IMG/VR virus record: IMGVR_UViG_2574180358_000004
Direction: 5' to 3' (one strand)
Origin: a virus
Lineage: Duplodnaviria; Heunggongvirae; Uroviricota; Caudoviricetes
Length of the DNA stretch: 4,005 nucleotides
Shown here: piece by piece, positions 1-4,005 of the stretch
Numbering within the stretch: the first letter of the stretch is position 1
Layout of the letters: every line of letters starts with the position of its first letter
The notes under the pieces: model-generated
What the model was told of the DNA's origin: nothing
The model's database searches: none
The model's input: only the letters and a program-made list of their open reading frames with translations
Translations under genes and position numbers: made by a program

Positions 1-260
1 TAAGTTGGAGTCATTACCCGGAAAGTAAACAAGAATACTCCCATTGACTTATATCAATTAATCAACTTTTTATAAGCTATCACTAACTTATTGTGTATAG
101 CTGAAAAGTCAGAGACAAGTTCACCATCTGCATTATTTCTTAAGTTAATAGTTTATTGCTAACTTAATTTATGTATCGACTATTGATAGCCATCTTAAAG
201 TTACAATATCCCTCTGCATTATTTTTCATCACAAATAATATATCTATTGCACGACACTCA

Positions 261-277
261 TCTGCTCTAATAAATTT
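261..277 (+). promoter_or_regulatory. C1-repressor-type operator (Op51-like) in front of the c4-icd-ant operon
   Basis: Sequence TCTGCTCTAATAAATTT matches 15 of 17 positions of the asymmetric P1 C1 operator consensus ATTGCTCTAATAAATTT as I recall it. A possible overlapping promoter is TTGCAC (247-252), 18-bp spacer, TAAATT (271-276). The same box recurs at 1918-1934 within a ~30-bp conserved block. Confidence 0.6.
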
Positions 278-315
278 GTATTTTTAAGTCGCGAATGCTA
301 TCTTTTCGCATCATA

Positions 316-345
316 TTGACCTTTTAATCGTTCAGGCTTATAGTT
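316..345 (+). promoter_or_regulatory. sigma70-type promoter candidate directing rightward transcription into the c4-like RNA and icd-ant
   Basis: TTGACC (316-321), 18-bp spacer, TATAGT (340-345); sits in the AT-rich ORF-free region just upstream of the structured RNA. Pattern match only. Confidence 0.35.
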
Positions 346-373
346 TCGCCGTCGTAGCAAATTCTGCGACCGG

Positions 374-396
374 GTTTAGCAGCCTGAATGATTGTG
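374..396 (+). repeat. Upstream copy of antisense-RNA target boxes (a1/b1-like): TTAGCAG and GATTGTG
   Basis: GTTTAGCAGC (374-383) and GATTGTG (390-396) recur at 543-552 and 574-580. Both are exactly complementary to CACAATC (502-508) and CTGCTAA (515-521) in the structured region, in the order expected for antiparallel pairing. Confidence 0.45.
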
Positions 397-439
397 CGGA
401 CAGCCGCAGATATCCGATATTGCGGTATTTTTGTGTCCG

Positions 440-535
440 TAAAACCGCGTTACGCCCAAATTATGGTGGGGCGTGATGGGGAGGCTTCGGCCTGCTGGTT
501 TCACAATCGCCAGTCTGCTAACCCCGTCACGTCCT
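440..535 (+). ncRNA. c4: c4-type antisense RNA candidate (immunity-I repressor RNA); boundaries approximate
   Basis: GC-rich structured stretch between the promoter region and icd with no convincing ORF. Predicted hairpins: 448-457/469-478 (10 bp including G-U pairs); 482-485/490-493 closed by a UUCG tetraloop; 495-498/511-514 with CACAATC in the loop; alternative closing stem 475-481/522-528. The two 7-nt elements complementary to the duplicated flanking boxes lie in a loop and a junction. Position upstream of icd-ant matches P1 immI organisation. Confidence 0.45.
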
Positions 536-542
536 GCCACCT

Positions 543-583
543 GTTTAGCAGCGGGTAGCAGGTTGTTAAACCTGATTGTGAGG
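543..583 (+). promoter_or_regulatory. Downstream target boxes (a2/b2-like) overlapping the icd Shine-Dalgarno; probable site of antisense translational repression
   Basis: GTTTAGCAGC (543-552) and GATTGTGAGG (574-583). The GAGG at 580-583 is the Shine-Dalgarno for the ATG at 592, so pairing with the RNA element CACAATC would occlude the ribosome-binding site. Confidence 0.45.
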
Positions 584-591
584 CCGTAACT

Positions 592-813
592 ATGGTTAAT
601 GCCAATCCTTGCGCACGCCAAGAATTCATCTGGCGTTTCTATTCCTGTAAAAAACACCACTATCACTTCGTCATCGCAGCAACAGAAGACGAAGCACGCT
701 CTCAATTGCCTGATGGTCCCTGCATTTTTACTGCCCGTTTTTCAACTAACTCGCGCAATTCACTTAGTTACTGGAACCTCCCCTTCTCTGCCGACGTTCA
801 GGGGGATTTATGA
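592..813 (+). CDS. icd: Small icd-like protein (73 aa), translationally coupled to ant
   Basis: ATG at 592 preceded by GAGG with 8-nt spacing. Its TGA stop (811-813) overlaps the ant ATG (810-812) as ATGA. Length and position match my recollection of P1 icd; no sequence-level confirmation is possible here. The alternative frame 599-835 cannot be fully excluded. Confidence 0.5.
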   Translation: MVNANPCARQEFIWRFYSCKKHHYHFVIAATEDEARSQLPDGPCIFTARFSTNSRNSLSYWNLPFSADVQGDL

Positions 814-1754
814 AAAAACCTCTCGTCACCCGTAATGAAATAGCCGAAGCGATCGCCCTGCATACAACCTGTATGCCGACACGGGAGATCCCCGGCGCAA
901 TTGCCAACTATTTCATGATAACCAGACGTTTTTATACCCGAACAGATAAGGCTGTGATCAACAAGCTACTGATAGCCGAGATCAGGGATTATTTGATTGA
1001 ACAAGGACGTCTACGTTACGCAACAGTGGCAGCAGAAATGAGAAAGGAGGCACATAGAATGACCGGTAATAATTTGAATGTTGAAAAACCAGCACCTGTT
1101 GCTTCAGCTACGCCATCACCAGCTGTGAATGTTATCTCCAACACTGGAGACACAATCGACAGCCAGACACTGTTAAAGATGGTCAATGAAGCTCGTAAGT
1201 TATGTGGGGAACCAGAGGTTCGGAACAACAAATTCATCGAAAAAATACTCGACGAATTAGAAGGTGAGGACGGTTACACAAAAAGTGCAACCGTGCCGCC
1301 AGGTGGCGGTACGCCTATGGTTGTCATAACCATGACCTACAAACAAGCCCTGCGAGTCGCCGCGCGCGAGTCAAAAGCGGTCCGCCGTTCGCTGATCGAC
1401 AAACTGGAAGAGTTACAGCAGGCAAACTCCCCTACCCCATCGATCCCCCAGACATTACCAGAAGCCCTACGCCTGGCTGCCGAGTTAGCAGAACAGAAAA
1501 TGCAGTTGGAACAACAGCTGGTGGCCGCAGCCCCTAAAGTCGATTTTGCCGACCGGGTATCAGTGGCCAATGGAATCCTGATCGGGAACTTTGCAAAGGT
1601 CGTTGGACTTAAGCAAAACGCCCTTTTCTCATGGTTGCGCCAGAACGGCATTCTCATGGCTTTTGGAGCGCGCAAAAACGTACCGCGCCAACAGTACATC
1701 AACGCCGGGTATTTCAGGTGCTGGATGATGAAAATGGCTACCAGATACGGCTGA
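810..1754 (+). CDS. ant: Antirepressor Ant (Ant1 form) with KilAC/ANT-type C-terminal domain; reading frame breaks near 1712-1715 so the ORF as written ends prematurely at 1754
   Basis: 314-aa ORF. ATG at 810 preceded by GGGGG (801-805). Residues ~200-300 (LPEALRLAAELAEQK...PKVDFADRV...NGILIGNFAKVVGL...WLRQNGIL...RKNVPRQQYINAGYF) align closely with the C-terminal half of the downstream KilA ORF. After GYF the frame yields RCWMMKMATRYG-stop, while the conserved continuation lies in the -1 frame. Confidence 0.8.
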   Translation: MKKPLVTRNEIAEAIALHTTCMPTREIPGAIANYFMITRRFYTRTDKAVINKLLIAEIRDYLIEQGRLRYATVAAEMRKEAHRMTGNNLNVEKPAPVASATPSPAVNVISNTGDTIDSQTLLKMVNEARKLCGEPEVRNNKFIEKILDELEGEDGYTKSATVPPGGGTPMVVITMTYKQALRVAARESKAVRRSLIDKLEELQQANSPTPSIPQTLPEALRLAAELAEQKMQLEQQLVAAAPKVDFADRVSVANGILIGNFAKVVGLKQNALFSWLRQNGILMAFGARKNVPRQQYINAGYFRCWMMKMATRYG

Positions 1755-1840
1755 CGCCCCAATTAACGGGTAAAGGCCAGCAGTGGTTAACTCGCAAGCT
1801 ACTTGATGCTGGTTTGTTAAAACCAGTAGCAATAGGTTAA
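1715..1840 (+). other. ant: Displaced C-terminal segment of ant in the -1 frame (QVLDDENGYQIRLTPQLTGKGQQWLTRKLLDAGLLKPVAIG); ant is either a frameshifted pseudogene or carries a 1-bp sequencing error
   Basis: The frame-2 translation from 1715 aligns with the KilA C-terminus (…RISFTTRITGKGQQWLMKRLLDAGVLVPVAATR). Restoring one T in the run at 1712-1714 (TATTTCAG to TATTTTCAG) gives the contiguous reading GYF-QVLDDENGY…. Confidence 0.6.
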
Positions 1841-1852
1841 CAAAAGAAAAAA

Positions 1853-1877
1853 CCTGCCAGCTAACTGGCAGGTTTCT
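1853..1877 (+). terminator. Rho-independent terminator after ant
   Basis: Stem CCTGCCAG (1853-1860), loop CTAA, stem CTGGCAGG (1865-1872), followed by TTTCT; preceded by an A-tract (AAAAAA), so it could act in both directions. Confidence 0.6.
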
Positions 1878-1917
1878 GAGCAGATCGTCCAACCCGATCT
1901 GGATCGAGTCAGAAAAA

Positions 1918-1934
1918 TTTGCTCTAATAAATTT
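1918..1934 (+). promoter_or_regulatory. C1-repressor-type operator (Op53-like) in front of kilA-repL
   Basis: TTTGCTCTAATAAATTT matches 16 of 17 positions of the recalled consensus ATTGCTCTAATAAATTT. It sits in a block (1918-1947) that repeats the 261-290 block, including TAAGT 17 bp downstream of TGCTC. A possible promoter is TTGCTC (1919-1924), 17-bp spacer, TAAGTG (1942-1947). Confidence 0.65.
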
Positions 1935-2003
1935 CGTTTTCTAAGTGCAAAGAATCACCATTTCGAGCTGGTGATTGAAGGTTGATGCAAATTTGGAGAA
2001 AAA

Positions 2004-2804
2004 ATGCAACAAACATTCAATGCGGATATGAATATATCAAACCTTCATCAAAATGTCGATCCTTCCACCACTCTGCCCGTTATTTGTGGTGTTGAAATTA
2101 CGACCGACCGCGCTGGCCGTTACAACCTTAATGCTCTACACAGAGCGAGCGGACTCGGTGCCCATAAAGCGCCAGCTCAATGGCTAAGAACGCTGTCAGC
2201 CAAACAGCTCATCGAAGAGCTGGAAAAAGAAACTATGCAGAATTGCATAGTTTCGTTCGAAGGCCGTGGCGGCGGCACTTTTGCCCATGAATTGCTCGCA
2301 GTGGAGTACGCTGGTTGGATTTCTCCCGCGTTTCGGCTGAAGGTAAACCAGACATTTATCGACTATCGCGCTGGAAGATTACAACCTGCTATTCCGAAGA
2401 GCCTCCCAGAAGCTCTCCGTTTGGCTGCTGACCTGGCAGAGCAAAAGCAACGGCTGGAGCAAAAAATGCTGATGGATGCACCTAAAGTCGAATTCGCCGA
2501 ACGCGTTGCTACCGCCAGCGGGGTTCTAATCGGCAACTATGCCAAAGTGCTCGGCCTGGGCCAAAACTATCTCTTCACCTGGTTGCGTGATAACGGAATT
2601 CTGATCGCAACCGGTGAACGCAGGAACGTCCCCAAACAAGAATACATATCCCGTGGGTATTTCACCCTTAAAGAAACCGTGATCGATACAAGCAATGGAA
2701 GCAGGATTTCTTTCACGACTCGTATAACCGGCAAAGGTCAGCAGTGGCTGATGAAGCGATTGCTTGATGCTGGTGTGCTGGTACCTGTCGCGGCAACGCG
2801 CTAA
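2004..2804 (+). CDS. kilA: KilA-like protein: N-terminal KilA-N DNA-binding domain plus C-terminal Ant-like (KilAC) domain
   Basis: 266-aa ORF. ATG at 2004 preceded by GGAGA (1995-1999). The N-terminal region (…YNLNALHRASGLGAHKAPAQWLRT…FEGRGGGTFAHELLAVEYAGWISPAFRLKV…) fits the KilA-N fold pattern. The C-terminal ~130 aa is paralogous to the ant C-terminus. Position after ant and before a repL-like gene matches P1 order. Confidence 0.8.
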   Translation: MQQTFNADMNISNLHQNVDPSTTLPVICGVEITTDRAGRYNLNALHRASGLGAHKAPAQWLRTLSAKQLIEELEKETMQNCIVSFEGRGGGTFAHELLAVEYAGWISPAFRLKVNQTFIDYRAGRLQPAIPKSLPEALRLAADLAEQKQRLEQKMLMDAPKVEFAERVATASGVLIGNYAKVLGLGQNYLFTWLRDNGILIATGERRNVPKQEYISRGYFTLKETVIDTSNGSRISFTTRITGKGQQWLMKRLLDAGVLVPVAATR

Positions 2805-2833
2805 CAGACGTAGTAAGAACCACCAGCATTGTA

Positions 2834-3679
2834 ATGCTGGCTAAAGTCACTTTCCTGAGCTGTATAACGATGAGCGATTTTACTTTTTCTGGCTATGAAT
2901 TGGCCTTCTTTGTAACACACTCCGGTCTATCCCGTAGCGCCGGGCATATCCTGTCGCAATGTGCAAATCTCGCGGCAACAACCAGTGAATACTTCATTCA
3001 CAAGCCCCACCGCCTGATCGCGGCAGAAACTGGTTATAGCCAATCAACCGTCGTTCGTGCATTCCGTGAAGCTGTAAACAAAGGAATTCTGTCAGTAGAG
3101 ATTGTTATCGGCGATCACCGTGAACGTCGCGCTAACCTGTACCGGTTTACACCATCCTTTTTGGCCTTCGCACAACAAGCCAAAAATGCGCTGATTGAAA
3201 GCAAATTAAAGATCTCTTCAGCGGCAACCAAGGTTAAAGCTGTTCTCGCTAAGACATTGGCTTTATTTGATTTTTTATCCACACCCCCATATCAAAATGA
3301 TACCCCCTCCCCCTGTCAGGATGACGTGGCAATAAAGAATAAGAAGTCACAAGTTAAAAAAACAAAAAGATCAGTTTCCGGCGGTGCCGGAACGACCAGA
3401 CTCAAAAAATTGACTTCATGGATCGCTGAGGCAAAAGCAAAGGCTGACAATCTGCGGTTATCCAAAAAACGCGCTCAAAAACATGAGTTCAAGCAGAAAG
3501 TAGAGGCGGCTGCGCGGAAATATGCTTACCTGAAGAACAAGCGTTCGCCTGATATTGGCGGGATATCAAACTTCGATAATCTACCGCATTGCATGACGGT
3601 AAACGAAGCTCTTAATGCGGTTTTAGCCAATAATAAAGATAACGAAAAATGGGGTATACCGGCAGGATTCAGGGGGTGA
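2834..3679 (+). CDS. repL: RepL-like lytic replication protein (winged-helix/HTH N-terminal region, lysine-rich basic C-terminal region)
   Basis: 281-aa ORF directly downstream of kilA, same strand, 30-nt gap. HTH-like segment IAAETGYSQSTVVRAFREAVNKGIL; basic tail KKSQVKKTKRS…KKRAQKHEFKQK. Assignment rests on gene order and length as recalled for P1, not on verified homology. No convincing Shine-Dalgarno before ATG 2834; an alternative in-frame ATG lies at 2870. Confidence 0.55.
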   Translation: MLAKVTFLSCITMSDFTFSGYELAFFVTHSGLSRSAGHILSQCANLAATTSEYFIHKPHRLIAAETGYSQSTVVRAFREAVNKGILSVEIVIGDHRERRANLYRFTPSFLAFAQQAKNALIESKLKISSAATKVKAVLAKTLALFDFLSTPPYQNDTPSPCQDDVAIKNKKSQVKKTKRSVSGGAGTTRLKKLTSWIAEAKAKADNLRLSKKRAQKHEFKQKVEAAARKYAYLKNKRSPDIGGISNFDNLPHCMTVNEALNAVLANNKDNEKWGIPAGFRG

Positions 3680-3682
3680 TAG

Positions 3683-3693
3683 ATTGCTCTAAT
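3683..3693 (+). promoter_or_regulatory. Partial C1-operator-like box (ATTGCTCTAAT) between repL and the downstream small gene
   Basis: The first 11 positions match the operator consensus exactly and the last 6 do not (11/17 overall). Location is intergenic, 4 bp after the repL stop. Confidence 0.25.
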
Positions 3694-3729
3694 CTGGAGT
3701 CACCTGGCGTTTTCAGTTTGAGGTCGGAG

Positions 3730-3975
3730 ATGCAATCTGATTTTTTACAGTTAGCGATCGCTTTTGCAGGATATGTTTGTATTGGCTTCTGTGTATACAT
3801 GATCAGCCGAAAAATGCTTGTCGATATCTACCGCAAAGAACGAGCAGAGGAGATCTTAGTATGGATTTTCTTTGGCGCGGTCTGGCCATTAGGGATCATG
3901 TTTGCTGCAACATTTCTTCTGATGTGGATATTCACCCTTCCAGGTGATTTCTATAGAAAAAAAGCCAGACATTGA
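3730..3975 (+). CDS. Small hydrophobic protein (81 aa) with two predicted transmembrane helices; function unknown
   Basis: ATG at 3730 preceded by GAGG (3720-3723) with 6-nt spacing. Hydrophobic segments LQLAIAFAGYVCIGFCVYMI and ILVWIFFGAVWPLGIMFAATFLLMWIF are separated by a charged loop (SRKMLVDIYRKERAEE). The longer ORF from 3649 overlaps repL and lacks a ribosome-binding site. Confidence 0.5.
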   Translation: MQSDFLQLAIAFAGYVCIGFCVYMISRKMLVDIYRKERAEEILVWIFFGAVWPLGIMFAATFLLMWIFTLPGDFYRKKARH

Positions 3976-4005
3976 TACAATCGTTGCGGGTGCTTGAGGC
4001 TATCT

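Follow-up and report, generated by a model that had tools for sequence, protein, structure and literature searches.

Probable C1 operators Op51 and Op53 ahead of the ant and kilA operons in a P1/P7-like phage-plasmid

The stretch of viral DNA analysed here (the window, 4,005 nucleotides) is the immI (c4-icd-ant) and kilA-repL region of a P1/P7-like phage-plasmid, as identified by megablast over bases 19-4005. Phages P1 and P7 and several P1-like phages are 96-98% identical to it, and plasmids of Salmonella, E. fergusonii and E. coli in PLSDB reach up to 98.7%. The nearest complete replicon is pGCUET01-1, a plasmid of a pig E. coli, with 99.3% identity. P1, P7 and hundreds of P1-like plasmids share 96-99% identity with the window, and related records number about 800 in complete E. 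coli genomes and PLSDB. Bases 1-18 (TAAGTTGGAGTCATTACC) had no match among the matches listed in three collection searches, in which the listed alignments begin at base 19; this short end is either another module junction or an artefact of the window edge.

The open reading frames of the window are icd, ant1/ant2, kilA and repL, all on the plus strand. The counterpart of P1/P7 icd occupies 592-813 and is followed by ant1/ant2 (810-1840), the frame of which is broken by a 13-bp deletion after 1716, as seen from the open reading frames and from comparison with relatives. The kilA gene (2004-2804) and repL (2834-3679), which has oriL inside it, correspond to genes annotated in P1. A terminator scan placed a terminator-like hairpin with a 13-bp stem at 1848-1877, between ant and kilA. 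At their C-termini, ant and kilA encode paralogous KilAC domains, visible in the DNA as direct repeats D2/D3 (1764-1830 and 2725-2791); both C1-controlled operons therefore end in a related domain.

Two 17-bp boxes lie in front of these operons, TCTGCTCTAATAAATTT at 261-277 and TTTGCTCTAATAAATTT at 1918-1934, both on the plus strand. The initial annotation had taken them for near-consensus C1-type operators. C1 sites are asymmetric and dispersed (PMC8546580); about 20 of them are spread across the P1 genome. The part of that paper that quotes Lobocka et al. 2004 gives the C1 operator consensus as ATTGCTCTAATAAATTT, the same as the one used in the initial annotation. Measured against the consensus as quoted there, the first box has two mismatches (at positions 1 and 2) and the second has one (at position 1), and they are the sole matches in the window with up to three mismatches on either strand. 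A position weight matrix (PWM) was built from 18 annotated operators of P1 (AF234172), with Op51 and Op53 held out of the 20 monovalent ones. Run over the window, it scores 1918-1934 at 21.6 bits and 261-277 at 18.2 bits; the third-best site reaches 6.7 bits. Annotated P1 operators range from 15 to 27.5 bits, except for the weak Op99b (6.2 bits), and across the P1 genome they are among the top scorers, only two unannotated sites outscoring the weakest annotated one. The proposed operators thus stand, at the proposed coordinates. Other operator-like strings in the window, such as 155-171 (ATTGCTAACTTAATTTA) and 3477-3493, were dismissed because they score merely 2-7 bits.

An AT-rich 17-mer might recur by chance, and exact 16-mers of this AT-rich motif do occur at 59 viral-contig loci that lack similarity to P1. 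About half of the matches in that scan of viral contigs are unrelated chance occurrences, which served as a control for flank composition. Within the window, however, two consensus matches were observed against 0.03 expected from dinucleotide shuffles, and none of 200 shuffles gave two. Furthermore, both boxes fall exactly on orthologous annotated operators, so that recurrence by chance has essentially no probability left and may be regarded as refuted.

The positional evidence comes from alignments with the P1 and P7 records, in which both boxes are exactly in register with protein_bind features of AF234172 and AF503408. In P1, 48140-48156 (AATGCTCTAATAAATTT) is annotated as "monovalent C1-controlled operator Oc4, former Op51", and 49810-49826 (TTTGCTCTAATAAATTT) as "OrepL, former Op53; controls expression of kilA and repL". 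The P7 record carries the corresponding features: TCTGCTCTAATAAATTT is its annotated Op(c4), and the box at 1918-1934 equals its Op(rep). The comparison with P1 Op51 and Op53 drawn in the initial annotation therefore holds in a stricter form, as the boxes are positional orthologues and not merely similar sequences. Both are monovalent, in agreement with the P1 annotation: no inverted partner site beside either box scores above 2.3 bits with the PWM, whereas bivalent operators of the Op72ab and Op99ab type have a second, inverted 17-mer overlapping the first by 6 bp.

Taken together, these data indicate, with a probability of about 0.95, that the boxes are Op51 (Oc4) and Op53 (OrepL), asymmetric 17-bp C1 sites of a P1/P7-like phage-plasmid. 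Given their identity with P1 Op53 and P7 Op(c4), C1 would be expected to bind at both. The initial interpretation is essentially correct, and the feature, the thoroughly studied Op51/Op53 pair of P1 and P7, is already known. Its significance beyond correct annotation is small, as the element is one more member of a very common phage-plasmid family; re-identification of two textbook regulatory sites can serve as a positive control. The arrangement resembles that of phage lambda, where CI, acting at OR and OL, is likewise a single prophage repressor that occludes lytic promoters. Lambda operators, however, are palindromic, dimer-bound and clustered, whereas C1 sites are asymmetric 17-mers, mostly single and in some cases paired (bivalent). 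C1 binds as a monomer.

The two boxes differ in how closely they follow their P1 counterparts. The Op53 locus shows no substantive difference from P1, with two substitutions in the surrounding 151 bp. The same 17-bp sequence lies 70 bp upstream of kilA with the same -10 hexamer inside the operator, the same three GATC sites lie in or near the -35 region, and the same antisense promoter follows. Op51 of the window is in register with P1 Op51 (Oc4) and has the same downstream promoters, but it differs at operator positions 1-2, and only there: these are TC in the window and in P7, AA in P1 and AT in the consensus. T at position 1 is found in none of the 18 other P1 operators and C at position 2 in one of 18, and the PWM score falls from 25.4 bits for Op51 of P1 to 18.2 bits in the window. 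Judging from this score, the window Op51 may have a lower affinity for C1 than that of P1. The TC variant is nonetheless an annotated operator in P7, to which the window Op51 is identical, downstream promoters included. Positions 1-2 are also the point at which P1 and the P7/window type lose upstream homology; the sequence upstream of the window Op51 is P7-type and not the sim region of P1.

Control of the kilA-repL operon follows most directly from this layout. Promoter P53 (PkilA) lies at 1899-1928 on the plus strand, with coordinates taken over from P1 (49792-49820) and from X15638, the original record. Its -35 hexamer TGGATC (1900-1905) carries a GATC, and its -10 hexamer TCTAAT (1923-1928) corresponds to operator positions 6-11 of Op53 in two independent annotations, the P1 genome record and X15638. 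Three Dam sites lie in or near P53, at 1883, 1896 and 1902. Identity to P1 is complete across Op53 and the -10 hexamer, with one substitution upstream, at 1907. The antisense promoter P53as (PaskilA), TCGACA-17-TATATT, lies at 2031-2059 on the minus strand; it matches the promoter consensus at 10 of 12 positions and corresponds to P1 49923-49951. Since Op53 contains the P53 -10 hexamer, bound C1 would exclude RNA polymerase and, in the prophage, would keep kilA and the lytic replication initiator gene repL silent. The experimental literature, as summarised in PMC9948254, has C1 sitting on Op53 across P53 and thereby preventing expression of kilA and repL in the lysogen, in agreement with the initial proposal that this operon is held under C1.

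The same proposal had been made for the c4-icd-ant operon, and there it applies in part. Two promoters follow Op51 on the plus strand. P51a (P2c4; 275-304, P1 48154-48183) has its -35 region at 275-281 and its -10 hexamer TATCTT at 299-304; the stretch is identical to P1, and the -35 region overlaps the 3' end of Op51. Both promoter overlaps, that of P53 within Op53 and that of P51a with the end of Op51, use coordinates transferred from P1 onto identical sequence. P51b (P1c4; 316-344, P1 48195-48223), TTGACC-17-TATAGT, is near-consensus, with 10 of 12 matching positions, and starts 39 bp past Op51 with no operator overlap. P51b and P53as were recovered by the promoter consensus scan independently of the P1 annotation. 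Because Op51 touches P51a and P51b lies 39 bp beyond, C1 could occlude the former but not the latter. Repression of P51a but not of P51b would also be expected from published work on P1; papers from the Schuster laboratory reportedly describe P51b as constitutive in lysogens.

The remaining control would come from the C4 antisense RNA. Its gene (459-544, plus strand) matches Rfam RF01695 at 69.6 bits, and the a1/b1 targets of C4 RNA (338-390, plus strand) match RF03163 at 54.6 bits, above the gathering score. At variable positions c4 is identical to P7 and unlike P1. Throughout 338-590, wherever P1 and P7 differ, C4 RNA and its targets a1/b1 and a2/b2 follow the P7 type, which predicts P7 immI specificity for the element. 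The Salmonella small RNA IsrK also matched in Rfam, below threshold (43.7 bits against a gathering score of 50); this match overlaps a1/b1 at 351-432 and suggests that IsrK-type small RNAs are related to the a1/b1 part of immI leaders.

In P1, C1 represses the c4-icd-ant operon, full repression of ant needs C4 RNA too, and Ant is the sole antirepressor that can be produced while C1 is present (PMC8198154). A mechanism consistent with these reports can be proposed for the window. C1 bound at Op51, on the border of the -35 region of P51a, would shut this upstream immI promoter, while the stronger promoter P51b, beyond the reach of C1, could go on supplying C4 antisense RNA, which in turn would block translation of icd and ant. 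Inactivation of C1 would open P51a and P53 together. Control of c4-icd-ant by C1 is thus only partial, the remainder being exerted by C4 RNA. The label "lytic-promoting", given to both operons in the initial annotation, is too simple for c4-icd-ant, because this operon also encodes the immunity RNA C4.

The similarity of the two control regions extends beyond the 17-bp boxes. The initial annotation had described a duplicated block of about 30 bp, and a repeat search confirms that 260-289 and 1917-1946 form the longest direct repeat in the window, with 25 of 30 bases identical. The downstream flanks are T-rich: that of Op51 (GTATTTTTAAGTC, 278-290) ends in TAAGT, and its counterpart beside Op53 (CGTTTTCTAAGTG) occupies 1935-1947. 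Between 261-290 and 1918-1947, 16 of the 17 operator bases and 8 of the 13 flank bases are identical. As had been pointed out, TAAGT stands 17 bases past TGCTC in both copies (263-267 to 285-289 and 1920-1924 to 1942-1946).

These observations could reflect a specific duplication, in which an ancestral operator and a gene with a KilAC domain were copied in tandem to give the ant and kilA operons, the shared T-tract and TAAGT being leftovers of the copying. Besides the rank of the block as longest direct repeat, the paralogous C-terminal halves of ant and kilA, in which repeats D2 and D3 keep a constant spacing of 961 with 67% DNA identity, are consistent with such an event. However, a flank identity of 8/13 is ordinary, as 31 of the 190 pairs among 20 P1 operators reach at least 8/13, and each flank is closer to that of another P1 operator than to its partner in the window: Op51 to Op86a (10/13) and Op53 to Op68 (9/13). 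The P1 data thus already suggest that the closest relatives of Op51 and Op53 lie among other operators. Moreover, the operators are 1657 apart while the genes are 961 apart, and with about 550 bp between operator and ant1 against 70 bp between operator and kilA, the supposed units are out of register. Tandem duplication is for these reasons an improbable origin of the blocks.

A survey of the 20 P1 operators indicates instead that the flank belongs to the operator family. Mean pairwise identity is 5.1/13 in the downstream flank (positions 18-30), against 3.6 in the upstream flank and 3.7 for random AT-rich 13-mers. T is the consensus letter at operator positions 19-25, with 0.5-1.0 bit per position, and the majority letters at positions 25-29 spell TAAGT. 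A co-oriented T-tract (at least five T in positions 18-25) accompanies 13 of the 20 operators, compared with 4.7% of random P1 8-mers and, among 85 PWM sites occurring by chance in unrelated viral contigs, 19%. The flank of some operators resembles a decayed inverted half-site; the bivalent operators Op72ab and Op99ab have their partner site there. The flank similarity is real but is a general trait of C1 operators and not a sign that the two blocks are copies. Because the T-rich flank is common to most C1 operators, the repeat seen in the initial annotation is genuine, but its reading as a private duplication falls, the flank match being at the background level of the family.

The spacing between TGCTC and TAAGT invites another reading, in which the repeat is mainly a sigma-70 promoter (-35 TTGCTC, 17-bp spacer, -10 TAAGTN) rather than a repressor site and recurs because both operons need a promoter. 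The spacing is promoter-like, and Op72a, Op86a and Op88 of P1 are annotated with a -35 hexamer at operator positions 2-7 and a -10 hexamer at positions 25-30. On the other hand, TTGCTC matches TTGACA at 3 of 6 positions, and TAAGTC and TAAGTG lack the conserved T at -10 position 6. Neither site is called by the consensus scan, and P51a and P53 are annotated with different hexamers. Furthermore, conservation across 18 operators peaks at positions 3-11 (GCTCTAAT) and shows no promoter pattern, which makes a promoter origin of the repeat hardly credible.

The conserved flank raises the possibility, not a likely one, that C1 operators are longer than 17 bp and form a cassette of about 30 bp, with a T-tract at positions 18-25 and a weak TAAGT-like motif. 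The flank might then function in the C1/Lxc-operator complex, through DNA bending or extended contacts, or as an embedded promoter, and such cassettes might travel with exchangeable modules or delimit them. The latter idea arises because three operators, Op51, Op55 and the one at a second ant locus, coincide with module junctions between P1-like genomes or lie only a few bases from them. Homology between P1 and pGCUET01-1 breaks inside Op51 (P1 48142; window 262/263) and again inside Op55 (P1 51585; window 3693/3694), and the inserted second icd-ant locus of pGCUET01-1 starts 6 bp before its own operator (33166-33188). This second locus (pGCUET01-1 33390-34858) is diverged, with 70-82% DNA identity, lies directly beside c1 and is preceded by operator TTTGCTCTAATAAATTG and a T-tract.

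The idea that operators act as recurrent recombination joints was considered and rejected: all fetched loci show only two alleles on each side per joint, and two or three operator joints among about 24 breakpoints are not clearly above expectation when intergenic positions serve as the null. Deletion of immI through the two direct repeats would leave a hybrid Op51/Op53 joint, and a search of PLSDB gave 0 records with such a joint at a coverage of at least 80%. Of 510 matching plasmids, 507 share at least 95% identity in the ant-kilA spacer and the other three 90-95%, a near-uniformity that deprives phylogenetic footprinting of power. Phage D6, which has c4 and icd, has no C1-type operator in that locus, where the best PWM site scores 8.4 bits.

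Repression at either operator would depend on a C1 protein encoded elsewhere on the replicon. The pGCUET01-1 plasmid encodes a "phage repressor protein C1" identical to P1 C1.100 at 281 of 283 residues (99%), together with genes that are coi-like and lxc-like by size. It has 21 PWM sites of at least 15 bits, which correspond to the P1 operator set and include the same Op51 and Op53. As the window covers only 4 kb, the c1 gene of its own replicon presumably lies outside it, judging from these relatives.

Two lesions in the window could be taken as signs that the operators are relics in a decaying plasmid that has lost C1 control. The first is the deletion in ant, which removes 13 bp (CGGTGAAAGAAGT, between GGTG repeats) relative to P1, P7 and pGCUET01-1. 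The resulting frameshift replaces the last ~42 residues of Ant1/Ant2 with nine others, and the deletion is absent from the 10 plasmid matches listed of 219 (coverage of at least 80%). Either ant is truly an antirepressor pseudogene here, or the deletion is an assembly error. With ant frameshifted, part of the circuit controlled by Op51 may be defective here.

The second lesion concerns the homologue of P1 Op55 (Orlf), the third C1 operator in the region. Just past the repL stop codon, at the same place as in P1, the window keeps the left 11 bp of this operator, ATTGCTCTAAT (3683-3693), but from there on unrelated sequence, beginning with CTGGAG, takes the place of the right 6 bp and of all that lies downstream, so that homology to P1 and P7 stops at 3693 in mid-operator. 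The remnant (3683-3699, plus strand, aligned with P1 51575-51591) scores 3.4 bits with the PWM against 18.4 bits in P1 and is probably no longer an operator.

Neither lesion makes general decay a likely explanation. Both operators, promoters P53, P51a and P51b, and c4, icd, kilA and repL are intact and identical or nearly identical to functional P1/P7 counterparts, and the nearest replicon still has c1 together with its coi-like and lxc-like genes. The Op55 remnant is widespread as an allele and no private lesion. A relic status for Op51 and Op53 is accordingly very improbable. Instead, the element combines P7-type immI specificity and an intact C1-controlled lytic replicon with a truncated antirepressor gene and the loss of Op55. 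Among P1-like viral contigs the allele with the Op55 remnant in fact outnumbers the P1 type by 15 to 8, and in the window a small hydrophobic open reading frame of 81 amino acids (3730-3975) stands in place of rlfA/rapA.
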